This document shows positions 1,483 to 64,000 of a stretch of 64,000 nucleotides of DNA, piece after piece. The number at the start of each line of letters is the position of its first letter. Within the stretch, counting starts at the first letter, position 1. Below the pieces are notes generated by a model, which saw only the letters and a program-made list of their open reading frames with translations, did no database searches and had not been told where the DNA came from. The DNA is from Archaeoglobaceae archaeon (GTDB lineage: Archaea > Halobacteriota > Archaeoglobi > Archaeoglobales > Archaeoglobaceae). Both the position numbers and the translations under genes were made by a program. The DNA lies in NCBI GenBank assembly GCA_027036775.1, contig JALWDS010000044.1, positions 6,260 to 70,259 on the forward strand. Direction: 5' to 3'.

Positions 1483-1503
1483 GATTAACTACGATAGTTA
1501 ATC
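1483..1503. repeat. Island palindrome copy 1: GATTAACT-ACGAT-AGTTAATC
   Basis: Perfect 8-bp inverted arms with a 5-nt spacer, 38 nt upstream of the HTH gene start. Confidence 0.9.
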
Positions 1504-1519
1504 AAAAGGTTGAAATAGT

Positions 1520-1540
1520 GACTAACCGTAATGGTTAATC
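1520..1540. repeat. Island palindrome copy 2: GACTAACC-GTAAT-GGTTAATC
   Basis: 7/8 arm complementarity. Ends at the base before the ATG at 1541. With copy 1 it flanks an AT-rich TATA-like stretch (1509-1516). Confidence 0.9.
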
Positions 1541-1837
1541 ATGGCTTTGGTAAACTGGCTCAAGGTTTTGAGAGCTTTACAGATGGCTGAAGAAATCAAG
1601 AGAAATCTCGACTACTGTACTAATCTTATACAGAGAAACGCATGCAACTGTAAACACGGTGAACTCTGTCAAAGAGCCTTAGCAATTGCCACAGGTTTAT
1701 CAGATAATGCCATCAAGAACATGTTGCTTAGACTCGAATTGTATAGAGAAGAGTTAGGAGACTGGTTCCCGTTCGAGATCAGAAAAATTGATGCCGGGAT
1801 GAACCAACCGAGAAAGTTCATAAGGCTAAGATCCTGA
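1541..1837 (+). CDS. Small helix-turn-helix DNA-binding protein, function unknown
   Basis: 98 aa. Has an HTH-like segment (QRALAIATGLSDNAIKNMLLRLE) followed by a basic wing-like tail. The gene is bracketed by palindrome copies 1-3. Confidence 0.55.
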   Translation: MALVNWLKVLRALQMAEEIKRNLDYCTNLIQRNACNCKHGELCQRALAIATGLSDNAIKNMLLRLELYREELGDWFPFEIRKIDAGMNQPRKFIRLRS

Positions 1838-1856
1838 TTAACCACTGTGGTTAATC
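1836..1856. repeat. Island palindrome copy 3: GATTAACC-ACTGT-GGTTAATC
   Basis: Perfect arms, extendable to 10 bp (CTGATTAACC/GGTTAATCAG, 1834-1858). Overlaps the TGA stop codon of the HTH gene. Confidence 0.9.
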
Positions 1857-1955
1857 AGATGTATAATAATTAAATCAACTGTTGAGCTAAGCCAAAGATT
1901 ATAACAACGACACTACCAACCACAAAGCATAGTAATTATATCGAGGTGGGAGGTA

Positions 1956-2539
1956 ATGTACTTTGATCCGAGGCCGAAGAGAAAGAGGGAAGGTTTATAC
2001 GATAGAGATAAAGAGCTTGAAAAGTGTTGGAAATATTCGATTACTTCAAGAGTAAGGATTTTCTCGTAAAGGGATTCGAGCAAGTTGGATTGGACGTTGA
2101 AAAAGATGTTACAAATTATGCTTGCGAGAAGCTCGACGGAATCGTCGGCTGGCTCGTTCACTTCGGCTTGAAATGCTTGGAGAAGAAGACTTCTAAGGAC
2201 GTGGTTGAGGAAGTTTTAGGTGAAGCCAGCAAAATTTCGTTCGAAGAGCTCAACAAGTTTTTAGAAAAGCACAGACCAGCAGAAAAAAGAATTTTTGAGA
2301 TCGCAAAAGCCATCGCAACGGGCAAGAAAACTTGGAGTGAGATTAAGAGACACTTGGAATCGGTGGATCAAAGATCTATTCCCGACGCTTCCTTAAACAG
2401 AGCTATCAAAACTCTAATTAAAGCCTCCTTCGTGGAGAAAATCGTCGATGGTAGAAATGTTTACTATCAGCTTACCGATCCAGTTCTAAAAATTCAATTA
2501 ATCGTTACGGTTAATCAAACTTCAAAATTTATCGAATAG
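1956..2539 (+). pseudogene. Remnant of an archaeal AAA ATPase (PF01637-type ATPase plus C-terminal wHTH) with the P-loop domain deleted
   Basis: A strong SD (GAGGTGGGAGGT) precedes an ATG at 1956 that encodes MYFDPRPKRKREGLYDRDKELEK, the typical N-terminus of this family (compare FHNREKEI in the intact paralog at 62534). The frame changes near 2018-2026. It then continues as FDYFKSKDFLVKGFEQVGLDV...GIVGWLVHFG...KKTWSEIKRHL...YYQLTDPVL, the C-terminal third of the family. No Walker A motif is present. Confidence 0.6.
2496..2516. repeat. Island palindrome copy 4: AATTAATC-GTTAC-GGTTAATC
   Basis: Left arm matches the consensus at 6/8. Lies inside the last codons of the ATPase remnant. Confidence 0.7.
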
Positions 2540-2559
2540 AGAAAAACATCGAGAGAAAA

Positions 2560-3142
2560 GTGATAACAGCTCATCTAAAGCGGGTGAGAACCATGCTGAT
2601 CGGGATAGGGGGAGCGACGCTCTCGGGAAAGACAACTATAACTCTTAAACTCTGCGAAGAGCTATTGAAGAGAGGTTTTAGGGTAGGGATAGTCCTGGAA
2701 TTTGCGGAGACCGTAGCGAAAGAAATGGGATACAGTAAAATCGAAGAAGTCAGAAGAAATCCTAAAAAATACTCCCAATTCGAGCTTGAAATTCTTTTTA
2801 GGAAGGTAACGCTCGAAGAACGATTAAAAGAGCGATTTGACTTCGTGATAAGCGACACCACTCCAGCAGAAGTTATCCTTATACTCTAAACTCTACTTAC
2901 CTTACGAATTATTAGAAATCGTGGAAGGTATAACTAGGAAATACCTTAACAGATATGACGTGGTTTTCTTACTCGAACCTCTAAACGTTCAATCTAACAA
3001 CGGATTCAGATCAAAACAAGACATAGCGAGCAGAAAAAAGCACTATGCAATTCTAAAAAACATTTACCCCCAATACGTAGAAATTCCAACGGCACCGATA
3101 GACGAAAGACTGAAACTAATTCTAAACAAACTACTATCATAA
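2560..3142 (+). pseudogene. P-loop NTPase/kinase (AAA_28-like) split by one frameshift
   Basis: ORFs 2560-2889 and 2921-3142 are in different frames. The first carries Walker A (GGATLSGKTT). The second frame is open from about 2868 (SLYSKLYLPYELLEIVEGITRKYLNRYDVVFLLEP) and continues the same fold. A single frameshift near 2865-2875 would restore a protein of about 185 aa. Confidence 0.5.
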
Positions 3143-3144
3143 GT

Positions 3145-3165
3145 GAGTAACCACTACGGTTATTC
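3145..3165. repeat. Island palindrome copy 5: GAGTAACC-ACTAC-GGTTATTC
   Basis: Starts 2 nt after the stop at 3142. The 21 nt TAACCACTACGGTTATTCAAT (3148-3168) are identical to 11461-11481. Confidence 0.85.
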
Positions 3166-3249
3166 AATTGCGGGTAGATCGTAACGTTGTCATATTATGA
3201 CACCTCCCATAACGGTAATTGTCAAGTCCTGACATCTACTATCGCGAGT

Positions 3250-3270
3250 GATTAACCACAGCGGTAAATC
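3250..3270. repeat. Island palindrome copy 6: GATTAACC-ACAGC-GGTAAATC
   Basis: 7/8 right arm. The left flank GCGAGTG (3244-3250) is shared with copy 7. A further half-site GTTTAATC lies at 3288-3295. Confidence 0.8.
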
Positions 3271-3661
3271 AACCTCTGGTCCATAGCGTTTAATCAATCA
3301 AGGATGGTAATCTACTTCAAGTTTCCAGCCTTTTCTTTTTCAATTCGATGATTTCATCAAGCTTAAGTTTCCTAAGCTCTTTTTCAAGCTCTGGAGTTCT
3401 TAGCTCCTCAACTTTCAACCTAGGATCCAACACTTTCCTCTCAAGTTCTTTAATCCTTTCTCATTATCTCTCAAGAAAATACCTCTCAAAGCCTTTAGAG
3501 CGTTCCAGTAATCGTATTAACGTGGTAGAATTTGGTGATTTTTTTTCTTCTTTCTTTTATCTGAGTGTGTTTAAGTACTACTTTTTAGGTTTAGTACATA
3601 TGGTATCTATCTCACATAGTTGGATAATTACAGGTGTAAGCGTATGTGAAAGGGGTGAAAG

Positions 3662-3811
3662 TTAAGCTTTTCTAATGACAATTTCGCCATTTTTCTCGTA
3701 GTAAACTAAGAGATCACCCTCTTTTAGTCCGAGCTTTTCGACTACTGCTCTTATGATCGTTGTTTTGAAGCCTTTGCTAACTTTAGATGTTCCCAATAAC
3801 TTTTCACCCAT
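3662..3811 (-). CDS. AbrB/SpoVT-fold antitoxin-like protein (orphan, 49 aa)
   Basis: Below the ORF-track size cutoff. Manual translation: MGEKLLGTSKVSKGFKTTIIRAVVEKLGLKEGDLLVYYEKNGEIVIRKA, a looped-hinge-helix pattern like the VapB at 11892. No toxin gene follows, only a start-less coiled-coil remnant (about 3325-3470, minus). Confidence 0.55.
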   Translation of the reverse strand: MGEKLLGTSKVSKGFKTTIIRAVVEKLGLKEGDLLVYYEKNGEIVIRKA

Positions 3812-3891
3812 GAGTTACGATTGACCGAAAAGTACTTATAGTTACTGGTTCTAAAAGTTACTAAAGTACTAAAAGTTCGAGAGGTGGCAAA

Positions 3892-4201
3892 ATGTTTAGA
3901 ATCCCTCGAGTCCTCACGAGCATTGAAACAATGAGAGAAATCTGCGAGGAGTTGAAGTATGGTAGTAAAAGTGCTAGAGAGCTGGCTGAAAAATTAGACA
4001 AGTCGGAAAATACGGTAAAGCAGTATTTGAACTCTATGAAGAGGTTTAAACTCGTAAGGTTCAACTCTAAAAGAAGGATACTTCTACGCAATTGGCGGTA
4101 AGTCTGTAAAAGTACCACAATCTCTCTTAGACTGGCTTAAGAGTAACGCAGAAATAAAGGAGTGCAAATCAGAGCCAACTTATTACGGAACTTGTAGCTG
4201 A
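3892..4201 (+). pseudogene. Winged-HTH regulator, probably frameshifted
   Basis: The 69-aa ORF (3892-4101) has an HTH (SARELAEKLDKSENTVKQYLNSMKRFKLV). The +1 frame continues from about 4075 as EGYFYAIGGKSVKVPQSLLDWLKSNAEIKECKSEPTYYGTCS and stops at 4199-4201, which looks like the missing wing and C-terminus. Confidence 0.4.
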
Positions 4202-4226
4202 GAGTTTTAATTTTTTATTTTTTATT

Positions 4227-6038
4227 TTAATAGATAATTCTAAGAATAATTGTAAGCACAAAACCAATTAAACAAAGCCATAGCAAGTTGACGAATGGTA
4301 TATATCTCAACAATATCATTGTAGGTTTGTTTTTGAAACAGCTAATGTTCTTCTCAAGCACTTTAGAGTAGTTTAGAGAAAATTGCGTAGCTAAGTGCTT
4401 AGCAATCGTAGGAGAGTATTTGTTAACAACTTTTATGCTCCAAACTATTAAGTCGAGCTGTTCTAACTCGTTAGATGGTATGACGAGATAGTACTGACCT
4501 AACAAATCGTTAACGATTACGGGATCCGTGTATATAGCTTCACTTGGCCGTTTTAGGGCTTTAATAACGTATAAATAGGTCGTAAACTTCACTTTAAGCC
4601 CGTCACAAGTTGTATATGTTTCTTTAGCTATCACATTGGGTATCTTTAGCCCATGAACATTCAAGTACTCGATAGGCTTTTCGTAATAGCGATGTGATTG
4701 GCAGATTTTATATTCCCACGATTCGTAAAACGCAAAGGGCCATGCCACGAAAAACGAAACTATAATCAGTCCAACTAATACGTGCATGACTAGCAAAACG
4801 TTATCTTTGATTATTACCTTCCTTCCGGATAACAATTTGAGAATAGTGTATACAACTGGGGGTACGATACCTAAAATCAAAGCGCTCGTAAGATTTGGTG
4901 CGGATTCTCTCGTAATATCTACTAACCATCCGAAGATAAAAGAGACAGCTGTAATAAATAGGACGACAGTTATAGACTTCTTTGAAGATTTTACATTCTC
5001 ATTAGGCGTTACTACTAAAATTATAGTTAGTATGACGAATGTAACAACCATGTATGCTAAAGGAGATATGGTTCTCCCGAAACTGGCTGTAAAGATAATA
5101 GCTATTGCATAAAGTATCGCAAGCATTAGTAATAGTTTTCCTCCGAATTTTACCCCCCGCTCGTCGTATAACTTTAGTAATTCGAGAACTTTACTTCTGT
5201 AATTTCTATATATATAATACGCAAAAATAAGAACGATAATTATGAAAACATAACTGGCTGGACTGATTTTCAAAAGACCATACCAATGAAGAGTCGAGAC
5301 GCCTATTCTAGTGAAGCAAGCGGAGAACCCGACGAAAAAACCTAACAGAGACAACACAGACTTATCTCGCACATGCCAATAGGACGTAAAAACCAGCCAC
5401 GGTATCAAAAGTGAAACCTCGACGGGATCCCAACCCCAAAAACCGCCCCATCCTAATGTAAAATACGCCCAAACTGCACCCATTACATTGGCAAGAGATA
5501 AGAAAAGGTATGCTAATCTTAATATCCTTAAACCTATGTTGTATCTTTGAGTAGCTAACAAAGCTACATAAAGACAAAAAGCGTAGGATAAAAATGTAAA
5601 GAAAGGATGTAATATTGCGTAGATGTTTCTAAATGTATGATCTAAGGATAGTCCATCTCCTAATATAGTTCTATTTAGGTAGTACGCTCCTTCCAAAAAC
5701 GCTGATAAAACGAGTAGTACACAGGTGATAACAAATACTCTATTTGTTTTTTTAGTGAATAAAGCCAACAAAGCGTAAACTAGGTAGCACCAAACCAAAA
5801 AACCGCTTGAAGTGCTCCACGAAGCTACAAATTTTAACGATATAGGTAGTTCTTTAGAAGAAGTTAAGAAAACATTGAGCAACGTAAAATCGTTAATCAA
5901 AAACGATAACACATATAGCACGGCACTTACGATTGCTAAGATGTATCCCGCATACGCTAAACGATTTTCGAGCATTGATAATGATAACAGTAATACAGAA
6001 ACAATAGCAATCCAGCCAGTGTAGTGAATTTCGAGCAT
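4227..6038 (-). CDS. CcmF/NrfE-like heme-handling membrane protein (WWD domain)
   Basis: 603 aa, polytopic. Contains a canonical tryptophan-rich WWD motif (LGWGGFWGWDPVEVSLLIPW, residues 195-214) flanked by conserved His (AILHPFF, YWH). Also has an ASWSTSSGFLVW segment as in CcmF. Low-GC codon usage. Confidence 0.7.
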   Translation of the reverse strand: MLEIHYTGWIAIVSVLLLSLSMLENRLAYAGYILAIVSAVLYVLSFLINDFTLLNVFLTSSKELPISLKFVASWSTSSGFLVWCYLVYALLALFTKKTNRVFVITCVLLVLSAFLEGAYYLNRTILGDGLSLDHTFRNIYAILHPFFTFLSYAFCLYVALLATQRYNIGLRILRLAYLFLSLANVMGAVWAYFTLGWGGFWGWDPVEVSLLIPWLVFTSYWHVRDKSVLSLLGFFVGFSACFTRIGVSTLHWYGLLKISPASYVFIIIVLIFAYYIYRNYRSKVLELLKLYDERGVKFGGKLLLMLAILYAIAIIFTASFGRTISPLAYMVVTFVILTIILVVTPNENVKSSKKSITVVLFITAVSFIFGWLVDITRESAPNLTSALILGIVPPVVYTILKLLSGRKVIIKDNVLLVMHVLVGLIIVSFFVAWPFAFYESWEYKICQSHRYYEKPIEYLNVHGLKIPNVIAKETYTTCDGLKVKFTTYLYVIKALKRPSEAIYTDPVIVNDLLGQYYLVIPSNELEQLDLIVWSIKVVNKYSPTIAKHLATQFSLNYSKVLEKNISCFKNKPTMILLRYIPFVNLLWLCLIGFVLTIILRIIY

Positions 6039-6097
6039 GGGTAGGCTAAACGCGCGTAACTTTAAAAAGCTGGCGCTTTAAATTGTCATCATGGTAA

Positions 6098-6179
6098 TTA
6101 CGAATAAAAATTGACAATGTTTTCTAAACTCAATTTAAATAAATCTTTCCACCCCGAAAACCAAACGAGGTGAGAAAAA
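6098..6179 (+). promoter_or_regulatory. Repeated promoter/5' module, copy A
   Basis: A 32-nt box TTACGAATAAAAATTGACAATGTTTTCTAAAC (6098-6129), a TATA-like TTTAAATAAA (6134-6143), and CCACCCCGAAAACCAAACGAGGTGAGAA (6149-6176), then ATG. Matches 9985-10060 and 10381-10431. Confidence 0.7.
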
Positions 6180-6668
6180 ATGAACGAAATGCGGATAAGA
6201 ATCCTAAGTAAATATAAAGGAGCACTATTTGTAATTTTGGTATTAACATACGCGTTAATTATGCTTATCCTAACAAAAAATTATCAATGCGTTGAGGGTA
6301 GAGCTGAAATTCTCGAACATTGTGTTAACTCGGGAAAAATACCTAAAGAAGTCTACGAATACGCTCTACTATTCCAACAAAAACACCCTAAAGCAGAATT
6401 TAAATTTTGTGAAAAGGGGAGATCGTGTATAATCTACATAATTCAAAAAAACAAAGAGGATCCATTACTATACACTCGATTCAATAAATCGAAAAATACA
6501 ATAATTATATTTTATGATAATAAATACACTAACAACTACATCATTTTAAATGCAAGCAAACCTAACGCAGTTCTAGTAACTATGAAAACAAATAACGGTT
6601 TTAAAACTTATAGCTTAAATGTAAGTTCCTCTGACCTAGATATTATTCTAAGTAGAATTAAAAAATAA
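6180..6668 (+). CDS. Membrane-anchored protein, unknown function (paralogous domain with 7054-8238)
   Basis: 162 aa with an N-terminal TM (GALFVILVLTYALIMLILT). The segment IPKEVYEYALLFQQKHPKAEFKFCEKGRS...IIIFYDNKYTNNYIILN aligns with LPECVLNFAKFYSELHPDVTFELVKEGDR...VVFFYEPYKARDYITIT in the neighbouring gene. Confidence 0.6.
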   Translation: MNEMRIRILSKYKGALFVILVLTYALIMLILTKNYQCVEGRAEILEHCVNSGKIPKEVYEYALLFQQKHPKAEFKFCEKGRSCIIYIIQKNKEDPLLYTRFNKSKNTIIIFYDNKYTNNYIILNASKPNAVLVTMKTNNGFKTYSLNVSSSDLDIILSRIKK

Positions 6669-7053
6669 TTAATAATTATTTTTAATAAATTAGATTTTTA
6701 ATTTTGTTTAATGTTTTTTGATCATTCATTATATCTAATATGGTATAAACGAGATAACAACATAATATTCCATTATAAGTTTTGAAAAATGATTATCGCT
6801 GTATCCCGTTTATATCTCCATAATAAATCACATAGTCATTTTGTTGTCGATAGTAACTTTCAGCAACTTGTTCTGCCAACCTAAATAAAGCGCAACTACT
6901 CCATGTGCCCACCTACCATAAAGCATTCGAGTTCTATGTAGATGACTACCACGGAATAGGTACTCCAATAGCTACGTGCAATCTACCATAATCTCTATTT
7001 ATTTATAATTTTTTAATTTTATATTTTTAAATTATAATAAAAATATATAATAG

Positions 7054-8238
7054 TTAACGGACGGTGTAGAATACAGCTTTTGAATTGCTTGGCATTGGGA
7101 TTGAGTGCCAATCTGGATCGGGAACTACGTCAAATAATGCATATTTAACAGTTTTTCCGTCTAATTTGATGATGACCCCTGGAATCTCCATGAAAATACT
7201 TTTAAGATTATCTACAGTGAAGGCCCTCTCATTTAAAGCTACTAAATAGGGATTCATAGCAACGAGTCCTCTTAGATTTGGAAACACGTCTTGGATAGGT
7301 GTATATTCAAACATTTTAGCATCAAATCCTAAATTCTTTAATACGAGAACTTCCGCCAATGCGTAGAGTTCATAGTACTTACGATAAGACAATGGACCTT
7401 CCTCTCCACCGCTAAGCAGTAATCCTTCTAGAATCCCCCCAACATTTACTTTGATCTTCTCTACCTTGGATCCTTTAAAAGCAAATGTAGTCAATTCGTA
7501 AGTTTTAAACCAATTTTCGTTTTCGCTAATCCACCAACCGTTATTAGTTAACACAGTTCTAAAGAATTCATGAAGGATTAAAAACTCCCCCTCTTTTCCC
7601 AATCCGTAATCCTTAGCAATTTTCCTAACTTGCTCTGCAATTTCTTTCGAGATTTTCTTATCTTCAGAGTTTAAAGTTACCGTCGCCCACTTAACTTCAT
7701 AAGACGATTTACTGGCTTTTACAGATACTACCCTTTGTGGACGCAAGATCACTGATACATTTTCAAGAAGAATTGGTCTCGTCTGTAAGAACAGAGCCTG
7801 AGGTTTTTCCACCCTCTTTGGCAAATCTACAGTTATTGTAATGTAATCTCTCGCTTTGTAAGGTTCGTAGAAGAACACAACTGTCTCTAAAACATCTCCC
7901 TTATCCTTAATGTAAACACCTCTCCAAACTTCCCAAAAATTATTCCCTTCGTAAGCGTAGAGTTTAGTTCTATCCCCTTCTTTAACGAGTTCAAAAGTCA
8001 CATCTGGGTGCAGTTCCGAGTAAAATTTTGCAAAATTTAGAACGCATTCTGGTAAATTTTTACTATACGTTTCTATATCTTCTAAGGAACCTTTTGCAAT
8101 AACCACTTTTGTTGCTGAACATGATAGCAAACTGAAATCATAAATAAAGAGTGCTAACAACAGTATTCCCCCTACTATGTAGAACGACCATAACTTTTTA
8201 TCTCCCGTTACATTTCCTTTCTTCTTTTTCATAATCAA
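7054..8238 (-). CDS. Membrane-anchored extracytoplasmic protein, unknown function
   Basis: 394 aa with an N-terminal TM (LWSFYIVGGILLLALFIY). Its N-domain is paralogous to the 6180-6668 product. Low-GC. Confidence 0.6.
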   Translation of the reverse strand: MIMKKKKGNVTGDKKLWSFYIVGGILLLALFIYDFSLLSCSATKVVIAKGSLEDIETYSKNLPECVLNFAKFYSELHPDVTFELVKEGDRTKLYAYEGNNFWEVWRGVYIKDKGDVLETVVFFYEPYKARDYITITVDLPKRVEKPQALFLQTRPILLENVSVILRPQRVVSVKASKSSYEVKWATVTLNSEDKKISKEIAEQVRKIAKDYGLGKEGEFLILHEFFRTVLTNNGWWISENENWFKTYELTTFAFKGSKVEKIKVNVGGILEGLLLSGGEEGPLSYRKYYELYALAEVLVLKNLGFDAKMFEYTPIQDVFPNLRGLVAMNPYLVALNERAFTVDNLKSIFMEIPGVIIKLDGKTVKYALFDVVPDPDWHSIPMPSNSKAVFYTVR

Positions 8239-8336
8239 AGATTACTATTAAACTATTAATAAAGTTTACTATTGATCTATATAGAAACATAACTATATTA
8301 TATATGCGTAGAGTTATAAACAATCTTTTTTAGTTC

Positions 8337-8590
8337 GACAACACCAAAATGGATTAGAGAAGATCTCACTGACCTCCTCCCCGCCCTAAAGGGCGAGAGT
8401 TCCCCACAGGGGAATCGGCTCACATCCGTCTCACGACTGCATTGCTTTCGGTTGGTGTCATTGGGCCGGGTCAGAGCGACCCTCTAAGGAGGTGTTAAGA
8501 TGGGGGAGAATAAAAACATTTCGGAAAGAGCGGGCTTTCCTTCCCGCCTTGAAAGGCGAGTCTTCCAGCCCGCAAACTCGGTGATGAGAA
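8337..8590 (+). ncRNA. GC-rich structured RNA candidate, family unknown (strand tentative)
   Basis: A GC-rich segment of about 250 nt sits inside an ORF-free, very AT-rich spacer. Hairpins: 8382-8395 (CGCCC/GGGCG), 8400-8414 (UUCCCC-ACA-GGGGAA), 8468-8482 (GGGUC/GACCC), and a nested helix 8530-8573 (GCGGGC/GCCCGC around CGCC-UUGAAA-GGCG). A possible closing helix pairs 8341-8347 with 8453-8459. There is an internal duplication (8375-8403 versus 8538-8566, 23/29). A TATA-like TTATAAA lies at 8314-8320. Confidence 0.4.
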
Positions 8591-8639
8591 AAAACACTAA
8601 AGAAGCTAAGCATATACTGAGCTTAATTCTTATGGGTAT

Positions 8640-9170
8640 TTATCTTCTTACAGTATCGATATAGGAGTTAATATTGTAGCGACCGGTGTAATAGACATAT
8701 AAGTAGTTTGGTTTGCCTACGTATTTTCCGGAAAATGGATTGAGGTATTTGTCTCTGTAGGATTTGCAATCGAAATTCTTAACAGTAACTATCATTGAAG
8801 GTGTGGCGAATCTTGGATAAGCTGGAGTTTCTACTGAAAATTTGTCATCTAATATTTTAGCGCAGTCCATGTACTCTTTTCTTAGTGGTAGATCCACCTC
8901 ATTGCCTCTGGCTATAATCTTGCAGAATGTTACATTTACATATTTCGTAAGATTTCTGGCAATCTTAAGTGCTTCTTTATCTGCGGGGGTGTTTGCATAG
9001 AAGAAATATACATGGATTGTTTGGTTTGGATAGAGTCTATCTCTGAGTTTAGGTGTTAAGGTTTGAGTTGGAAAATTGGTAATTATTTTTGTAGTTGTGC
9101 AAGGAGTTACAGTAAAATGTGGAATTGTTTTCTCGGTGTGGTTTATAGTAGGTGTTATTATCTTCTTCAA
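8640..9170 (-). CDS. Hypothetical protein, thioredoxin-fold-like without CxxC (paralog of 9245-9937)
   Basis: 176 aa with a TTG start and no ATG near the 5' end. LYPNQTIHVYFFYAN and PSMIVTVKNFDCKSYRDKY align with LNPNNVKMIIYADSR and PSIILIMKNGSYKTYSGLDSYKDY of the divergent neighbour. Confidence 0.45.
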   Translation of the reverse strand: MKKIITPTINHTEKTIPHFTVTPCTTTKIITNFPTQTLTPKLRDRLYPNQTIHVYFFYANTPADKEALKIARNLTKYVNVTFCKIIARGNEVDLPLRKEYMDCAKILDDKFSVETPAYPRFATPSMIVTVKNFDCKSYRDKYLNPFSGKYVGKPNYLYVYYTGRYNINSYIDTVRR

Positions 9171-9244
9171 CGATTATTGGTTTTCTGCACGTGAAATAGT
9201 AGATCCTATTCTACTGGGGAACAAATGAAAAATATACGGTACCA

Positions 9245-9937
9245 ATGTCAATAGACTGGCTATACGCTCAGATTACCGGCAAATTCCCCAAACCACCAGC
9301 TTACGCTAATAGAACATACCACGTTTACAACGAGGAATCGGAGAACATTACCGCTTTAGTCCTTGGCCCCAACTACATTCCAGAACCTATAACACCTCTC
9401 AACCCTAACAACGTTAAGATGATTATCTACGCGGATTCGAGAGGGATAAACGATGAATTCTTCATACCCTTGATGGACAACTACACGAAGAAAATAAGAG
9501 AAATAATACCAAATGCAAAATTCATCAAGATAGTAGACTGGAGCGCTTATTACCACCGCAAATACATAATCACTGATCCACCCGGATATGAGAACTATTG
9601 GGACAAGTATGTTATACCATGCACTAAATTTTACGATTATAGATCAAACAAATGGCTCCTAGACTTTCCAAGCATAATTCTAATTATGAAAAACGGTTCC
9701 TACAAGACCTACTCTGGATTGGATTCCTATAAAGATTACTTTGAAGTTGTAAGGAGTACTGGATACAGAGACAACCTAATAGCACACCCACCAATTGACA
9801 AGTTATTCTTAGATATTAAAGCATACTACGAAAAAAAGAAAGATACTGCCAAAGTCGAAATGATCAATAAAGTAATCAAAGAACTAAAAGAAATTAAAGA
9901 AATAATCAAAGAAAACTACGATAAACAACATCCATAA
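9245..9937 (+). CDS. Hypothetical protein, thioredoxin-fold-like without CxxC, with a Lys/Glu-rich C-terminal helix
   Basis: 230 aa. Divergently transcribed from its paralog across a 74-bp spacer. Confidence 0.5.
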   Translation: MSIDWLYAQITGKFPKPPAYANRTYHVYNEESENITALVLGPNYIPEPITPLNPNNVKMIIYADSRGINDEFFIPLMDNYTKKIREIIPNAKFIKIVDWSAYYHRKYIITDPPGYENYWDKYVIPCTKFYDYRSNKWLLDFPSIILIMKNGSYKTYSGLDSYKDYFEVVRSTGYRDNLIAHPPIDKLFLDIKAYYEKKKDTAKVEMINKVIKELKEIKEIIKENYDKQHP

Positions 9938-9984
9938 TTTTTTATAACTTTCAATATTTTACTTTTTTAATTAATTTAACTTTT

Positions 9985-10060
9985 TTACGAATAAAAATTA
10001 ACAATGTTTTCTAAACATTTTAAAATTTTTTTCACCCCGAAAACCAAGCGGAGGTGAGAA
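9985..10060 (+). promoter_or_regulatory. Repeated promoter/5' module, copy B
   Basis: The 32-nt box (9985-10016) is 31/32 identical to copy A. It is followed by TATA-like TTTTAAAAT and TTCACCCCGAAAACCAAGCGGAGGTGAGAA. The GTG inside GGTGAG (10054) is the start of the downstream ORF. Confidence 0.7.
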
Positions 10061-10353
10061 TTACGAGACTGCACGGTTTCGACGTCGAGGACGAGAAGTG
10101 CGACGGTTGCGGATGGAGAGTTAGCAAGCTTTACGTCCTCGAAGATTCGAAAGAGAATGCGAAAAAAATGCTGAACGAGATAGGATTGTGCGCTCATTGT
10201 ATCTGCGACCTCCTCGAAGAGAACGACTACCTCATAGTGCGAGACCTCGTAAAGCTCGAATGTCCGGAGTGCAAAAGAAGATTCCTTATCGAGACGAATT
10301 ACGAAGGAAACGTAACGTGTCCGTACTGCGGAGAGCTCGTCGAGTCCAATTAA
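10054..10353 (+). CDS. Double zinc-ribbon protein, unknown function
   Basis: 99 aa with a GTG start. Four Cys pairs: CDGC, CAHC, CPEC, CPYC. Confidence 0.55.
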   Translation: MRITRLHGFDVEDEKCDGCGWRVSKLYVLEDSKENAKKMLNEIGLCAHCICDLLEENDYLIVRDLVKLECPECKRRFLIETNYEGNVTCPYCGELVESN

Positions 10354-10380
10354 CTTATCACGATTTTTTATTTTACAATT

Positions 10381-10431
10381 TTTATTTATAGTTTTTTTCC
10401 ACCCCAAACCCGAGCGGAGGTGAGAAAAGAA
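10381..10431 (+). promoter_or_regulatory. Repeated promoter/5' module, copy C (lacks the 32-nt box)
   Basis: TATA-like TTTATTTATA (10381-10390) and CCACCCCAAACCCGAGCGGAGGTGAGAA (10399-10426). The following ORF starts MNEMWLRIS, compared with MNEMRIRIL after copy A. Confidence 0.6.
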
Positions 10432-11190
10432 ATGAACGAGATGTGGTTGAGAATCTCGGAAAGAGATTGGCAGAAGTACACGGGAGAAGTTAAGAGCGTC
10501 GAAGCGGGAGTGGAACTAACCCCGGAGTTCGTTAAAAAGGTGAACGAGATTTCGAACGGAAACGTGTTCTTCGTGGAAACGAGGGACGGGATTAAGATTA
10601 CCTACGCTTGCGGTCGCGGAAGTTACTACAAAGCGGAGGAGAAACTCAGAAAGTTAATAGAAAAATTCGTAATAGAACGGATAGCTAAGAACAACTACGA
10701 AAGAATCGGAGAGAACATGATTAAGATAAAAGAACCGATCACAACGGAGAACGTCGATCTAACTGAATTCAGCGAACTGATTAAGAAAATCGAAGAGGAA
10801 ATCAAGAGAGAGGAAGAAATTAAAAGGAAGATAAAAGAACTCAGAAAGAGGTTAGAGGAAAAACTTTCCCAGAAGATCGATAACTACGAGATTCGCAGTA
10901 ACGGGATCGACGTCACGATAAAGGGTGTAACGATCTATGTTCCGTTCAAGGACTTGGAAGAAGCTATCAAAGAGGTCGAAAACCTCGAAGAAAAGATAAT
11001 TGAGAAGCTAAAGAAAGAAATCGAATACCTCAAGAAGGAACGTGCGGAGATCGAAAGAAAGTACGAAAAGTTGTGCGAATTCGTAAGGAACAAGGGCTTA
11101 ACTAAAGATTTTCTCGAATTCTTAAAGGAAGAAAGGGAGAAAGAGGTCGAAGAGGACGTAATGGACGAGTTCGAGGAAATCTTCTACTAA
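10432..11190 (+). CDS. Coiled-coil protein, unknown function
   Basis: Start refined to the ATG at 10432 (the track uses the GTG at 10420). A globular N-domain of about 100 aa is followed by long Glu/Lys heptad-like repeats. Confidence 0.6.
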   Translation: MNEMWLRISERDWQKYTGEVKSVEAGVELTPEFVKKVNEISNGNVFFVETRDGIKITYACGRGSYYKAEEKLRKLIEKFVIERIAKNNYERIGENMIKIKEPITTENVDLTEFSELIKKIEEEIKREEEIKRKIKELRKRLEEKLSQKIDNYEIRSNGIDVTIKGVTIYVPFKDLEEAIKEVENLEEKIIEKLKKEIEYLKKERAEIERKYEKLCEFVRNKGLTKDFLEFLKEEREKEVEEDVMDEFEEIFY

Positions 11191-11207
11191 TTTTTTACGG
11201 AGCGAGT

Positions 11208-11228
11208 GATTAACCGTGGCGGTTAATC
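11208..11228. repeat. Island palindrome copy 7: GATTAACC-GTGGC-GGTTAATC
   Basis: Perfect arms, 17 nt after the stop at 11190. Confidence 0.9.
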
Positions 11229-11357
11229 AAACTGATAATAATAAGATACAAGTATAAATTTTACAGATTTACGAGGAGAAATTAACAGAACGAGGAGTTA
11301 ACGATTATTCAAGGAGTTTTTGATCTTTTAACCCCTTTTTAGTGGTTTTCGCAGAGT

Positions 11358-11378
11358 TATTAACTATAGCGGTTAGTC
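11358..11378. repeat. Island palindrome copy 8 (degenerate): TATTAACT-ATAGC-GGTTAGTC
   Basis: 5/8 arm complementarity but the same spacing and the same TTAAC/GGTTA cores. Confidence 0.55.
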
Positions 11379-11402
11379 AGAAGTTCGACGATTTCAAAAC
11401 TT

Positions 11403-11424
11403 TCGAGTGGTGTTCACCACTCGA
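11403..11424. repeat. 22-bp perfect palindrome TCGAGTGGTG-TT-CACCACTCGA flanked by a 12-nt direct repeat
   Basis: 10-bp arms. The direct repeat TCGACGATTTCA occurs at 11385-11396 and 11421-11432. Confidence 0.85.
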
Positions 11425-11457
11425 CGATTTCACGATTGTCGATTTGGAGTCGAAACT

Positions 11458-11478
11458 GGTTAACCACTACGGTTATTC
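11458..11478. repeat. Island palindrome copy 9: GGTTAACC-ACTAC-GGTTATTC
   Basis: 24 nt beyond the vapC stop codon. Confidence 0.85.
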
Positions 11479-11502
11479 AATGTAGTGTGGCTTAGGTGCT
11501 CT

Positions 11503-11895
11503 TCACCTTATCCAGAGTATGTCGGGATAAACACCCTCAAATTCTCTATCACCCGTGACTATAATTCCTTTTTTATCGATAGCTGTTGCGACGACGAAGG
11601 CATCCGCATAAGATAGACTATGCATAGCTTTAATCCTCCCGGCAGTTAAAGCTAAGCTCTCATTAACTTCTACGAACTCAATCGGCAACCTTTTTACAAT
11701 TGCTACGGCTTCATTAGCCTTTGCCATTCCAAATTCTCTTGCAACTATATAATAGACCTCTCCGAGATTAACGTAGTTCATGAACAGCTTTATTTCACCT
11801 TTCTCGGCCTTATCGATGATTTCTTCAACTTTATCTGCTCCTTCTTCGTTACCGAGATACGCAAGAATGGCAAAGCTATCTAAAACGTAATTCAT
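11503..11895 (-). CDS. vapC: PIN-domain toxin VapC
   Basis: 130 aa. Has the PIN acidic residues (N-terminal D in MNYVLDSFAIL, internal E, C-terminal D in YADAF and TGD). Overlaps vapB by 4 nt. Confidence 0.85.
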   Translation of the reverse strand: MNYVLDSFAILAYLGNEEGADKVEEIIDKAEKGEIKLFMNYVNLGEVYYIVAREFGMAKANEAVAIVKRLPIEFVEVNESLALTAGRIKAMHSLSYADAFVVATAIDKKGIIVTGDREFEGVYPDILWIR

Positions 11896-12122
11896 CTTTT
11901 CATCTCCCTCTCTTTCTCCTCCTTCTTATATTCGCTAATTATCTCATCTAACTTTCTCTTAAACTTTAGAAATCCTCTCCCTTTAGTCTTAGGAATAGGA
12001 ACGATAACTATTTCACCCCCAAAATCTAAAATCTCCACTTCGTTCCCAGCTTCAATCCCATACTTCCTCCTCAATTCAGCTGGCAGAACTATCTGTCCCT
12101 TAGTTGAAATTTTAACTGGCAT
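11892..12122 (-). CDS. vapB: AbrB/SpoVT-family antitoxin VapB
   Basis: 76 aa. MPVKISTKGQIVLPAELRRKYGIEAGNEVEI is a typical looped-hinge-helix N-terminus. Confidence 0.85.
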   Translation of the reverse strand: MPVKISTKGQIVLPAELRRKYGIEAGNEVEILDFGGEIVIVPIPKTKGRGFLKFKRKLDEIISEYKKEEKEREMKR

Positions 12123-12166
12123 ACCATCACCGTATAACGTTTTACCAATTTAGATATATGTTTTAC

Positions 12167-12182
12167 TTTACGGTTATTCAAG
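12167..12182. repeat. Island palindrome, right half only (TTTACGGTTATTCAAG)
   Basis: Matches the right half plus flank of copies 5 and 9. Lies 45-60 nt upstream of the vapB ATG. Confidence 0.5.
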
Positions 12183-12268
12183 GTAGAAAGAGCTATTCCG
12201 AGGGTTGATTAAGGGGTTGATGTCTGTTCTATTGAGAGTTTGGGGGGTTTAAAGCAGTTTCTGAAAAG

Positions 12269-13408
12269 CTATAGCGAGCTATAACATTTATATGCGTGTT
12301 TGATACCTTTTAAAGCGATAACGTAAGCGGAGGCGGTATGTTTATCCACACCTAACTTTTTCATCAGCTTTTCACCGATCTTACTCGTATTAGCTGGATT
12401 GACGTAAGAAGTTTTCAAACCGTATAAAGGTGCTTTCAATCTAGTCATTTCAATCACTCTGCTTCTAAAGGTTTGAACGGAGTAGTTGTAGTTTTTGCTA
12501 AATCTTCTACCGTTTTTAATCCAGAATAGCTTTAGCTTACCTAAAGCAGACAAATCTTCCAAGTATATTCTGTTTACTCCGTGATGGTAAGCGTACTTTA
12601 GCATTTCATGGATTTTCACACCTATCAAAGACCAAACTCTTCTTCTATGCATATTTCTCGATTTAACTTCTTTAAACCAAAACGTCTTATAATCTCTTAA
12701 TTCTCCGTTTTGATTGACAATTGCAAGGTTTATCCTATCTAAGTTTACGTCAACTCCAGCTACGTTTTTACCTTTCGGTTGATCGTGCCTTCTCATAATT
12801 TCCAAATAAAAGTCGTAGTCCACTGTAACTTGAACTTCACCATGTGTAAACAGAACTCCTTTGCGGTTACCAAATTGCTTCAATACAATCCTTGCATAAT
12901 AAGGTTGCATGTAGAACCATAAGTTTCCAAGTATTGGTTCATATCTCTTTGGAATTGTCGGTTCAACGATTACGTAGGATTTATTACCTTCAAAATCGAA
13001 TGTTAGAATTCTGAAGGATCCGTCTCCTTGGATCTTGATGTTCTGATTCATCTTTTTACTTTCCCCTTCACACTGAAACAATAACCAATTATTCCAGCTT
13101 ACGTCTTCTAATTTAACTTCGTCGAATCCAAATTCTTTGTACAATCGGTTCAACTCGTTGACAGACTCGATAACTCCGTAAACTAAATCTATCGCACCGT
13201 CAACGTATCTCCTGTTCGGTAGAATTTCGTAACCGACCTTTCGATACCTCTTATACATCGAAAATTGAGATAATGGTGGTTTACCATCTTTCAAAAACTC
13301 GTTAAAGACTTTCAGCGCTACCACTCTAAAAAGCTTAGCTGTTGAAATCAGTTTTCTCGCTATATCTCCAGATGCGTTGAACGGTAAGGTTAGGGTTATA
13401 TGTTCCAT
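12269..13408 (-). CDS. TnpB-like (IS605 OrfB-type) RuvC nuclease lacking the zinc-ribbon domain
   Basis: About 379 aa from the ATG at 13408 (the track uses the TTG at 13426). RuvC-I is VAGVDVNLDRINLAIV, RuvC-II is RIYLEDLS, RuvC-III is VNPANTSKIGEKLMKKLGVDKHTASAYVIA. No CxxC...CxxC is present between the TSK and DKH segments, where TnpB normally has its zinc finger. TATA TTTATAAA (13431-13438) lies at -30 to -23 of the ATG, suggesting a leaderless mRNA. Confidence 0.65.
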   Translation of the reverse strand: MEHITLTLPFNASGDIARKLISTAKLFRVVALKVFNEFLKDGKPPLSQFSMYKRYRKVGYEILPNRRYVDGAIDLVYGVIESVNELNRLYKEFGFDEVKLEDVSWNNWLLFQCEGESKKMNQNIKIQGDGSFRILTFDFEGNKSYVIVEPTIPKRYEPILGNLWFYMQPYYARIVLKQFGNRKGVLFTHGEVQVTVDYDFYLEIMRRHDQPKGKNVAGVDVNLDRINLAIVNQNGELRDYKTFWFKEVKSRNMHRRRVWSLIGVKIHEMLKYAYHHGVNRIYLEDLSALGKLKLFWIKNGRRFSKNYNYSVQTFRSRVIEMTRLKAPLYGLKTSYVNPANTSKIGEKLMKKLGVDKHTASAYVIALKGIKHAYKCYSSL

Positions 13409-13462
13409 ATTTGGATATTCCACCAAAACGTTTATAAATCTATCGGTTGTTAGTATTAACGT

Positions 13463-13506
13463 GCCCCGACCGTTCCGAGACCCGTAGGAGAACTGCGGTG
13501 AGGGGC
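13463..13506 (+). other. GC-rich hairpin (GCCCC..ACCG / CGGU..GGGGC)
   Basis: Pairings: 13463-13467 with 13502-13506, 13469-13472 with 13496-13499, and an apical 13473-13476 with 13487-13490. Starts about 23 nt downstream (plus strand) of the palindromic TATA at 13431-13438. Confidence 0.5.
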
Positions 13507-13527
13507 GTCGGGTGTCCGTGATGACTG

Positions 13528-13572
13528 TCTCCGCTACAGAAAGTTATAGATTAATACAATATGTAGCGGAGA
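13528..13572. repeat. Perfect 11-bp inverted repeat TCTCCGCTACA / TGTAGCGGAGA with a 23-nt AT-rich loop
   Basis: Arms at 13528-13538 and 13562-13572. It straddles the stop codon of the truncated thioredoxin ORF. Confidence 0.85.
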
Positions 13573-13747
13573 TCCAGAACGGTATGGCTACAACACCGAA
13601 ACTCCTTGCAAGTTCTCTGTTTTCCAAGACGTTTACTTTGATCAGTTCGACATCTCTAAAACCTTTCAGGACCTCTTCGAGGATATTTTCAACGTCTCTG
13701 CACGACTTGCACCTTGGCGAGTAGAACTCCACCACGACCTTTTTCAT
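13544..13747 (-). CDS. Small thioredoxin/glutaredoxin-like protein, C-terminally truncated or replaced
   Basis: Start refined to MKKVVVEFYSPRCKSC (ATG 13745-13747), because the track's N-terminal extension overlaps the tRNA. A CKSC redox motif and SFGVVAIP are present. The usual segment of about 20-25 aa after the cis-Pro is replaced by 11 unrelated residues (FWISATYCINL) encoded by the inverted repeat. Confidence 0.6.
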   Translation of the reverse strand: MKKVVVEFYSPRCKSCRDVENILEEVLKGFRDVELIKVNVLENRELARSFGVVAIPFWISATYCINL

Positions 13748-13818
13748 GTCGTTCGTTAGGTTCCACCATATAAAACTCAACCGAAAACGATATATTTTCT
13801 CCGAATTACTAATAATGA

Positions 13819-13891
13819 GCGGTCGTAGTCTAGCCTGGCAGGACACGGGCCTCCCGAGCCCGTCGCCCGGGTTCAAATCCCGGCGGCCGCA
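13819..13891 (+). tRNA. tRNA-Gly: tRNA-Gly (anticodon CCC)
   Basis: Manual cloverleaf. Acceptor GCGGUCG/CGGCCGC (one G-U pair), anticodon stem CGGGC/GCCCG with loop CUCCCGA, T arm CCGGG-UUCAAAU-CCCGG, discriminator A. No encoded CCA. Confidence 0.9.
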
Positions 13892-60990: not shown

Positions 60991-61053
60991 GCAACCACCC
61001 CTGAATCAAATCCATTTGATCTAAAATCAAGTATATTTGACTCAAGGTTGCAT
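60989..61053 (-). promoter_or_regulatory. cbiM leader with a start-codon-sequestering inverted repeat and an internal 16-bp palindrome
   Basis: ATGCAACC (60989-60996, includes AT of the start codon on the other strand) pairs with GGTTGCAT (61046-61053). Palindrome ATCAAAT-CC-ATTTGAT at 61005-61020. An AT-rich TATA-like region lies at about 61075-61085. Confidence 0.4.
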
Positions 61054-61087
61054 AAAAACCTTACCCTCACTGATACATAAATTTAAT

Positions 61088-62380: not shown

Positions 62381-62533
62381 AGTTGCAATTTGCCTAACTC
62401 TCGGATAAAGTATTCCTCCTATGCTTATTGTTTGTAGTTTTTAGCAACCACCTCTCGTAAAATAGCAAGTTCTTTTTCTCCTACCTCACCAGTTAAATAT
62501 CATTTCATCCCTAATCCCAGCGAGGTGTTAAGA

Positions 62534-63586: not shown

Positions 63587-63589
63587 CTA

Positions 63590-63958
63590 TTAAATCCATT
63601 TCGTCGAATTTAATATCGCCTTAGCTATCTTTAGCGTTATATTAGCTTCTATCCACGCCGCTATTACTATCAGAATTATCGAAATCAAAGCCATTGTTAG
63701 GTATTCCTTAATGTCTTCCTTCGTTAGCGGTTGTTCTTTCTTCCCTGCTAAATGCCTAACGATTTCGTAGGGAATTTTAAAGCCAGCTGCTCCCGCTATG
63801 ATTATAGCAGGAATTTCAAATATGCAGTGTGGAAGCGTTAATATTAATATTTTATTTATATTAAATTTATTAATACTATACTTAATAAGATACCCAAAAA
63901 ACACTGCGTTGTATAATTCGATCAAAAAAGTCGGAATCCCTAAAAAAAAGTCCTCCAA
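63590..63958 (-). CDS. SpoIIM/DUF95-like membrane protein (start uncertain)
   Basis: LPHCIFEIPAIIIAGAAGFKI motif. Near the window edge. Confidence 0.5.
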   Translation of the reverse strand: MEDFFLGIPTFLIELYNAVFFGYLIKYSINKFNINKILILTLPHCIFEIPAIIIAGAAGFKIPYEIVRHLAGKKEQPLTKEDIKEYLTMALISIILIVIAAWIEANITLKIAKAILNSTKWI

Positions 63959-64000
63959 GAATCTGTATCGCTAGTACTCCAAGTTATTTATTAAAATACA

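Follow-up and report, generated by a model that had tools for sequence, protein, structure and literature searches.

Autoregulated repressors with operators in the core promoter are well established in archaea; examples include MDR1 of Archaeoglobus fulgidus, Phr and LrpA of Pyrococcus, and the TrmB family. Archaeal viruses and plasmids also encode master regulators that act at repeated promoter sites, among them F55 of SSV1, a ribbon-helix-helix protein, and ORF80/PlrA of pRN-type plasmids, a leucine-zipper-like protein that binds TTAA-N7-TTAA. In this study, we have analyzed a 64-kb stretch of archaeal DNA (contig JALWDS010000044.1, positions 6,260 to 70,259; here called the window) and have characterized a family of palindromes within a low-GC island that it carries. 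Based on comparative sequence data, it is likely that these palindromes are the operators of an autoregulated winged-helix regulator, the 98-amino-acid (98-aa) product of the gene at 1541-1837 (plus strand), and that this regulator belongs to a tRNA-integrating archaeal mobile element.

The likeness to the known repressors lies in the site, a dyad of ~20 bp that is sized for a winged-helix dimer; in its location at the gene of the regulator itself, where it either separates the TATA box from the start codon or flanks the TFB recognition element (BRE) and TATA box; and in the presence of extra sites at other promoters. Unlike these repressors, the 98-aa protein could not be assigned to any family by sequence, has C-x8-C-x-C-x5-C as an invariant motif and is a product of mobile elements and not of the core genome, and a site at its own stop codon is conserved. 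As with F55 and ORF80, the gene of a small, putative DNA-binding protein lies beside the recombinase or replication module of an integrative element, and the cognate sites, at which binding is predicted, are repeated, at its own promoter and at others of the element. The half-sites contain TTAA and in this recall those of ORF80, but their spacing is TTAA-N9-TTAA rather than N7; furthermore, the predicted fold is that of a winged helix, and no sequence relationship to F55 or ORF80 was found.

Conserved boundary sequences are known from the mosaic joints of phage and plasmid genomes, and the palindromes resemble them in being short stretches of conserved DNA between modules, where homology starts or stops. 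Unlike boundary sequences, however, the palindromes appear to have an identifiable primary role as promoter-embedded operators, and, outside the regulator module, joints are only slightly in excess. Integrons have been reported in archaea (PMC9668308). Like integron attC sites, the palindromes are imperfect and lie at gene boundaries, with toxin-antitoxin (TA) genes among the units that they bracket; their arm cores are one mismatch from RYYYAAC and GTTRRRY, and in some related loci a tyrosine integrase gene is divergent from the first site. In contrast to attC, they measure 21 to 23 bp rather than ~57 to 141 bp, they have no L boxes or extrahelical bases, and it is their sequence that is conserved, not a structure such as that formed by the R''-L''/L'-R' boxes of attC. 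As judged from its Pfam match, the integrase is not an IntI but is of an archaeal phage type (PF16795) that targets tRNA genes, and, unlike in integrons, the genes stand in both orientations and the flanks are promoter-like. A full-text search of the literature with the two arm sequences returned no relevant paper.

Palindromes at the promoter of a winged-helix gene

Nine sites in the window match GATTAACC-N5-GGTTAATC with no more than three mismatches (starting at 1483, 1520, 1836, 2496, 3145, 3250, 11208, 11358 and 11458), compared with 0.32 +/- 0.53 sites expected from dinucleotide shuffles; when the site was read as GATTAAC-N7-GTTAATC, the identical nine sites were recovered, compared with 0.41 expected. 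Neither pattern has a site in 11479-64000, and all nine full sites, together with one right-half copy, are confined to 1483-12186. An earlier note on this DNA, made by eye from the sequence, had listed these sites and a right-half copy near 12167 and had described the family as restricted to the island. Both statements are borne out, since the other 50 kb contain no site, and the shuffled controls confirm that the family is enriched within the window.

The true site is 23 bp long, one base more on each side than the search pattern (TGATTAACC-N5-GGTTAATCA). From 80 unique copies in 32 loci we derived the consensus T-GATTAACC-RYNRY-GGTTAATC-A, a dyad-symmetric duplex site of a size suited to a dimer, with sequence-conserved arms of 8 to 9 bp around a center of 5 nt. 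The center follows the pattern R-Y-N-R-Y in 72 of the 80 copies; however, its first and fifth bases are complementary in only 34 copies and its second and fourth in 36, approximately what the purine-pyrimidine pattern alone would give. The center is therefore constrained for duplex sequence or shape with two-fold symmetry and not for hairpin pairing, and such symmetry would be expected of a dimer on duplex DNA rather than of a hairpin. The sites have T-rich DNA upstream and A-rich DNA downstream. Almost all non-redundant copies (73/76) lie outside open reading frames (ORFs), although ORFs cover 74% of the DNA (P ~1e-38), and 40 of the 73 copies that are followed by an ORF start lie within 150 nt of that start codon.

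Three of the sites frame the gene for the 98-aa protein. O1 (1482-1504, with a 21-bp core at 1483-1503; TGATTAACT-ACGAT-AGTTAATCA) lies directly upstream of a BRE/TATA-like spacer (1504-1518, plus strand), which reads AAAAGGTTGAAATAG in the window and AAAAGGTTTAAAT in homologous loci. O2 (1519-1541, with a 21-bp core at 1520-1540; TGACTAACC-GTAAT-GGTTAATCA) abuts the ATG and spans the predicted transcription start region. O3, a perfect palindrome (1835-1857), overlaps the TGA of the gene and is followed by the TATA-like ATAATAATTAAAT, ~100 nt upstream of an ATPase_2 pseudogene. The AAAAGG-TTTAAAT stretch between O1 and O2 resembles an archaeal BRE and TATA box, and its center precedes the ATG by ~26 nt, a spacing that is canonical between TATA box and start in leaderless archaeal mRNAs. 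From sequence and distance, we infer that this stretch is the BRE and TATA box of a leaderless promoter.

We compared the window with related loci and contigs, which are labeled with L-numbers (e.g., L021), and found that the position of the palindrome at this promoter is conserved. Relatives of the protein that are 59 to 99% identical and have the same recognition helix, SDNAIKNM, are encoded in ~17 distinct loci; in all of them a TTAACC-N5-GGTTA palindrome lies 0 to 6 nt before the start codon, and the DNA to the left of the promoter palindrome is unrelated among the loci. The closer relatives have a constant layout, in which O1 is followed by AAAAGGTTTAAAT, O2 and the ATG. The position of O1 is kept in nine loci (L021, L022, L023, L036, L040, L051, L057, L072 and L078), and in each of them homology starts exactly at its left edge. 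The stop-codon site, O3, is kept in the window, L021, L045, L047 and L057. In L040, L051 and L078 it is present as a variant, GATTATCC-N5-GGATAATC (GATTATCT-N5-AGATAATC in L078), although O1 and O2 of the same three loci are canonical. The variant-site region lies at ~1528-1585 in L051 and at ~205 in L078.

The palindrome also changes with the recognition helix of the protein. Whereas the SDNAIKNM helix of the window and its close relatives pairs with the TTAACC-type site, the LSSEAIRQM helix (L085) is accompanied by GAGTCAAGT-N3-ACTTGACTC, in the same O1-TATA-O2-ATG layout and with a further copy downstream of the gene; the VSDETIRKL helix (L092) by TATGACTCAA-N7-TTGAATCATA, which abuts the ATG; and the LSDTALKKM helix (L090) by TGATTTAAC-N5-GTTAAATCA, one base after the TATA box TTATATA. 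In this way, four of the five recognition-helix classes each have a palindrome class of their own, in an unchanged promoter position. The fifth, VSKEAIRQF (L084), has no TTAACC-type site and has TGACG-type inverted repeats upstream, which were recognized by eye only. This co-variation is the pattern expected of an autoregulated transcription factor that coevolves with its operator, and it would not be predicted if the palindromes were a shared recombination site, selfish repeats or terminators. Among the alternatives offered by the earlier note was that the sites are operators of a dimeric helix-turn-helix (HTH) protein encoded in the island; at the level of sequence comparison, phylogenetic footprinting and protein-site co-variation strongly support this proposal for the protein encoded at 1541-1837.

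The putative binder has four invariant cysteines (C26, C35, C37 and C43), and the family alignments show that E41, Q44 and a wing motif, PRKF, are also invariant. There is no Pfam family for the protein, sequence searches of the PDB gave nothing significant (best E = 0.3), and no homologue was present among 72,556 plasmid or 50,697 phage records; a marginal PHROGs match (E = 0.0066) is to a family of unknown function. A single-sequence search identified 20 relatives and a profile search 40, all of them unnamed, and, as judged from its sequence, the protein is not a demonstrable member of any named family. The relatives come almost entirely from hydrothermal metagenomes, with one in the chromosome of Archaeoglobus profundus. 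A genome scan found relatives on only three short contigs of metagenome-assembled genomes (MAGs; Hadarchaeota, Bathyarchaeia and one unclassified), and the host taxonomy therefore stays uncertain. An AlphaFold2 model built with the family alignment (predicted local distance difference test score, 91; predicted template modeling score, 0.80) has three N-terminal helices, an HTH and a two-stranded beta wing. In a Foldseek search of the PDB, every one of the top matches is a winged-helix DNA binder (TFE-alpha, MepR and other MarR proteins, SmtB/CadC/ArsR and Phr), but their E-values are 0.02 to 0.2 and none reaches E = 0.001, so that they support a fold assignment and not family membership. We are confident that the predicted fold is that of a winged helix. 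In the model, the four cysteines (C-x8-C-x-C-x5-C) lie in the loop that precedes the HTH, where they may form a structural zinc site or a redox or Fe-S sensor.

We postulate that the palindromes are duplex-DNA operators bound by this four-cysteine winged-helix protein, presumably as a dimer, and that its gene belongs to the conserved core of a family of archaeal integrative elements and proviruses. O1 adjoins the BRE/TATA on its upstream side, and O2 fills the ~22 bp between the TATA box and the start codon; occupancy of these two sites would block the recruitment of TFB and RNA polymerase and would result in autorepression. O3, at the stop codon, could serve as a loop anchor, as a roadblock or as a site for the next promoter. 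The other intergenic copies, some of which have a TATA-like stretch at the same distance, may place accessory genes under the control of the same regulator; such genes would include the integrase gene, ydjM, orc1/cdc6, an archaeal ATPase gene and TA pairs. The winged helix-turn-helix (wHTH) family appears, from the gene contexts described below, to be a central regulator of tRNA-integrating archaeal mobile elements and proviruses, and this wider membership of mobile elements would account for the restriction of the sites to the island. For a protein family of ~40 members without annotation, the comparison provides a likely function and a precise DNA motif. If this is confirmed, the motif could be used as a marker to find and delimit such elements in MAGs of uncultured archaea, and it would provide a handle on the control of their lysogeny-like state. 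On present evidence, the system represents no new kind of genetic mechanism; it consists of a transcription factor with its operators on a mobile element, in which the protein family is new to annotation.

Promoter geometry is seen in five of the window copies: O1, O2 and the copies at 1836 (O3), 2496 and 11208, the last three of which are followed after 6 to 7 nt by a TATA-like stretch, as at O1. The copy at 2496-2516 lies in the final codons of an ATPase_2 remnant (ORF 2024-2539), is followed by AAAATTTAT and precedes an NTPase pseudogene with its ATG at 2593; the perfect copy at 11208-11228 lies 17 nt past a coiled-coil gene and is followed by the TATA-like ATAATAATAAG. A degenerate copy with two mismatches, 3145-3165, lies 2 nt past the NTPase pseudogene, has no TATA-like flank and is probably a relic. 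The remaining full copies are at 3250-3270 (one mismatch), in an interval without an ORF, at 11358-11378 (degenerate, three mismatches) and at 11458-11478 (two mismatches), 24 nt past the vapC stop codon. The right-half copy, TACGGTTATTCAAGGTAG (12169-12186), lies upstream of vapB and is identical in 17 of 18 positions to 11468-11485, so that the vapBC pair is flanked by an 18-nt direct repeat. We considered that this half-site had arisen by insertion of a TnpB-like element into a palindrome, and we rejected this origin, since there is no left half at the other end.

The smaller observations of the earlier note were also confirmed. The copies at 3250 and 11208 are both preceded by GCGAGTG, the same 21 nt (TAACCACTACGGTTATTCAAT) occur at 3148 and at 11461, and copies stand where it had placed them relative to ORF ends: on the TGA of the 1541-1837 gene, at the end of ORF 2024-2539, 2 nt after 3142, 17 nt after 11190, 24 nt past vapC and upstream of vapB. 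The half-site GATTAACT is present at 63581, but it has no partner arm and occurs at chance level, since 2.6 exact matches to this 8-mer are expected per window.

Several observations weigh against the proposal that the palindromes are operators. Four of the nine window copies (3145, 3250, 11358 and 11458) have no promoter-like flank or downstream ORF; they lie in ORF-free stretches and look like relics. The variant O3 differs from O1 and O2 of the same locus, which hints at a second binder, and in L021 and L057 only ~14 nt separate O3 from the start codon that follows, so that the site cannot be a classical promoter operator there. The A. profundus homologue is encoded inside an operon and has no palindrome directly upstream. 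Among close strain variants, the palindromes are no better conserved than their surroundings, with 4 to 8 substitutions in ~120 nt compared with ~3% elsewhere. Finally, five multi-copy contigs (L034, L039, L049, L062 and L079), all short fragments, carry no wHTH gene; it is possible that the regulator acts on them in trans.

Recombination, partition and hairpin explanations

It can also be envisioned that the palindromes are crossover sites or preferred recombination joints at which genes or TA pairs are inserted, excised, inverted or shuffled, in a minimal integron-like cassette system possibly run by the tyrosine integrase of the element; we consider this unlikely. A number of junctions do fall on the palindromes. 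The wHTH module occurs in differing contexts, with homology that extends from the left edge of O1 to or just past O3; the 96.5% identity between L079 and the window ends exactly at 11229, at the right edge of 11208-11228; homology to L062 (87% over 83 nt) begins at 11360, inside 11358-11378; and L034 and L039 share DNA only from a palindrome onward. Of 424 internal breakpoints in homology across 33 loci, 138 are no more than 10 nt away from a palindrome, compared with 15 at random. This raw, approximately nine-fold enrichment was dismissed as support for cassettes, since it shrank to a small excess without the conserved regulator module: 10 of 199 breakpoints then lie at palindromes compared with 3.0 expected, they represent ~5 independent junctions, and 10 was also the largest value in any of 1000 randomizations. 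Mosaic joints are usually located at gene boundaries, and for sites in such places an excess of this size does not exceed expectation. On the question of whether single genes are gained or lost with both ends at the palindromes, the evidence, from contigs too short to show whole arrays, is mixed: several junctions and one 25-nt deletion (in L024 and L025, starting in the right arm of 3250-3270) are located at palindromes, but the largest rearrangement, at 4059, is away from them and most strain-variant indels are elsewhere. The integrase gene is adjacent to and divergent from O1 in L021 and L045, a geometry like that of intI and attI; however, the integrases that were found belong to the archaeal phage type, with tRNA genes (Gly and Asp) as their targets, and no relative of them was detected in the window (tblastn against the 64 kb; other recombinase families were not screened). 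Furthermore, genes are found in both orientations, several sites are followed by TATA-like stretches, and in remote homologues the promoter architecture is kept while the palindromes are quite different, which an operator would predict but a shared recombination site would not. The tyrosine-recombinase or integron-core reading of the earlier note is therefore not supported, since the sites are much shorter than attC, are conserved in sequence and have a center that is not constrained to pair. The operator explanation nevertheless leaves four features without explanation: the 18-nt direct repeat (right arm plus flank) around vapBC, the variant O3, two hybrid sites (L040 at 3446 and L051) in which a canonical arm is combined with a variant one, and two inverted remnants of wHTH 3' ends beside such sites in L040. 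The L040 stretches concerned are 2441-2527 and 3446-3530. The variant and hybrid sites in L040, L051 and L078 could reflect either another binding specificity or earlier recombination inside palindromes. That the sites serve secondarily as recombination joints is improbable but would be compatible with an operator function. In such a dual system, for which we see only a slight chance, the palindromes would be operators of the regulator and would also serve as crossovers in a minimal scheme of archaeal gene shuffling, in which the tyrosine integrase of the element, or the recombination machinery of the host, would act on palindromes occupied by the regulator, and single genes and TA pairs would be inserted, inverted and exchanged between related elements. 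This would account for the hybrid sites, the inverted remnants in L040, the vapBC repeat and the junctions on palindrome edges and, if true, would describe an integron-like cassette platform with a site much simpler than attC.

Two further explanations are less probable still. Small winged-helix proteins bind centromeres in archaeal plasmids, as does AspA of pNOB8, and the palindromes might accordingly be centromere-like or origin-associated sites, with the winged-helix protein as a partition adaptor or an origin-organizing factor. Tandem arrays with a spacing of 33 to 60 bp (four copies in L049, and three upstream of orc1/cdc6 in L079) and ParA-like genes in some related loci (L012 and L034) point in this direction, although those ParA-like genes are not adjacent to arrays. 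We regard a role in partition or origin function as quite unlikely, since the window sites are spread over 10 kb instead of being clustered beside parA or orc1, domain annotation of the window ORFs identified no parA, and no position other than the core promoter of the regulator itself is conserved in every lineage. Least probable of all, and in our view very improbable, is that the palindromes act as single-strand hairpins, either as repeats like repetitive extragenic palindromes (REPs) or miniature inverted-repeat transposable elements (MITEs), mobilized by a Y1 transposase of the IS200/IS605 type, or as RNA terminators or processing hairpins. The best copies fold as RNA with -11 to -14 kcal/mol at 37 C, several lie at the 3' ends of ORFs, and TnpB-type genes and a TnpB-less derivative occur in or near the island. 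Yet the central RYNRY is not complementary, arm mismatches are often uncompensated, and for the weaker copies the folding energy is only -3 to -7 kcal/mol and the z-scores are close to those of shuffled controls. Intrinsic termination was rejected, since the stems are AU-rich, and T-rich DNA before the stem and A-rich DNA after it are in the wrong order on either strand. Rfam, at gathering and at permissive thresholds, gave no match at any palindrome. A REP- or MITE-like origin, which the earlier note had raised, also fares badly: there is no copy in the 50 kb of core genome in the window (11479-64000 has none), the center carries no hairpin constraint, the TnpB-less derivative at 8359-8585 has no palindrome, and the far end of the TnpB-like ORF has no left half-site.

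Related elements and the island in the window

The wHTH gene is carried by mobile elements, several of which adjoin tRNA genes. In these related elements, the wHTH gene is usually divergent from or next to a recombinase gene and near a tRNA attachment site. L021 and L045 share the order tRNA-Gly 3' end, small ORF, tyrosine integrase gene (minus strand), O1, O2, wHTH gene, O3 and a ydjM-like membrane hydrolase gene, and their tRNA-Gly 3' end is 98% identical to the tRNA of the window. The order of integrase, wHTH and ydjM genes is identical in L086, whereas in L068 the integrase gene and the wHTH-ydjM pair are ~5 kb apart within one element, beside tRNA-Asp; in L012 the wHTH gene directly follows tRNA-Asn. 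The tRNA genes are at 1-57 in L021, 1610-1654 in L045, 3763-3838 in L068 and 9722-9815 in L012. Integrases of related loci match PF16795 (Phage_integr_3) and phrog_5127 and adjoin tRNA genes. In L090 and L091 the wHTH gene is divergent from a serine resolvase gene and beside a family-B DNA polymerase gene, and the A. profundus copy stands among MCM, resolvase and structural-looking genes.

Palindromes are present at other genes as well: three tandem copies precede orc1/cdc6 in L079, four precede a DUF1922 gene in L049, in L062 there are pairs before a DUF2551 gene and behind an ATPase_2 gene, and further copies are near radical-SAM, ParA and TA genes. An 18-mer scan of metagenomes returned 56 loci, of which approximately half are unrelated singletons; every multi-copy locus of this palindrome is hydrothermal and has a mobile-element gene context. 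An exact-pattern scan of viral contigs gave only seven singleton matches, which is chance level. L060, L073 and L083 were excluded because they carry a different, GC-rich palindrome family, and L074, which also looked distinct, was excluded. The family in L060, L073 and L083, which are from freshwater metagenomes, reads GATTGACCCC-N-GGGGTCAATC, with three to eight copies per contig and much longer flanking inverted repeats, and is unrelated to the element studied here.

The GC content of the window is 31 to 43% from position 1 to ~13.5 kb and ~47% in most of the remaining DNA. The low-GC island is bordered by cas6 (514-1287) on the left, beyond which longer contigs of the same locus carry csx1, cas4, cas2, cas1 and csa1, and by tRNA-Gly(CCC) (13819-13891) on the right. 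In addition to the 98-aa protein gene, it contains a truncated archaeal ATPase_2 gene, a broken NTPase gene, AbrB/MazE-type and VapBC genes, a truncated HVO_A0261-type winged-helix gene, genes for membrane and coiled-coil proteins, an HgcC RNA and a divergent TnpB-like ORF. The NTPase, which has only subthreshold P-loop matches in the window, is intact in the variant L027, where it is 185 aa long and annotated as AAA_28. Strain variants L001, L024, L025 and L027 are 95 to 99.7% identical to the window, but only up to 4059, within a gene and away from the palindromes. Since all the variants diverge from the window at this point, 4060 to ~13.5 kb is a different segment that has been joined inside the HVO_A0261_N-type gene. 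The 69-aa winged-helix ORF at 3892-4101 is the N-terminal stump of that protein, which is 175 aa long in L024 and L025 and 315 aa in L027.

Because it has no relative of the integrases of related elements (within the scope of the tblastn search given above), has no ydjM gene and contains several pseudogenes, the window is best seen as carrying a decaying, integrase-less remnant of a tRNA-integrating archaeal mobile element. No second, partial copy of tRNA-Gly, such as would indicate an att site, was found when we searched for one, and the island lies on the 5' side of tRNA-Gly, whereas related elements immediately follow the 3' ends of tRNA genes; it is therefore not possible to identify the sites at which the remnant was originally attached.

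The 385-aa ORF at 12269-13426 (minus strand), which adjoins the half-site, has no Pfam hit and has only motif-level similarity to the TnpB of L062 (VNPANTSK compared with VSPRNTSK); just upstream of its start is a GC-rich stretch of ~75 nt (13460-13535) that is probably structured, and a thioredoxin-like ORF (13544-13876) appears to be cut at the island edge. At 61000-64000, where no palindrome is present, the GC content falls to 38 to 41% around an intact archaeal ATPase-like ORF (62525-63586), and this region may be the edge of a second island.

In L062 (238-1562), an HgcC RNA (RF00062, 87.6 bits) and a TnpB gene (Cas12f1-like_TNB plus OrfB_IS605) are divergent, with the RNA 36 nt upstream of the gene. 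The HgcC copy of the window (8359-8484, minus strand, 69.5 bits) is followed after ~40 nt by a 61-nt match (8525-8585) to the 3' end of that TnpB gene, with the intervening gene missing; from its sequence, the unit at 8359-8585 looks like a TnpB-less, MITE-like derivative. The occurrence of HgcC beside TnpB in L062 and of this remnant in the window suggests that HgcC RNAs belong to elements of the IS200/IS605 type.

The palindrome-free part of the island contains a second repeat family, a ~42-nt leader (TTTTTCACCCCGAAAACCAAGCGGAGGTGAGAA) at 6135-6176, 10019-10060 and 10385-10426, directly before the start codons of genes for a 162-aa protein, a 99-aa Zn-ribbon protein and a 256-aa coiled-coil protein. 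A 32-nt stretch upstream of two of the copies (6098-6129 and 9985-10016) is 97% identical between them. The family also matches L079 and is probably a shared promoter and 5' leader.

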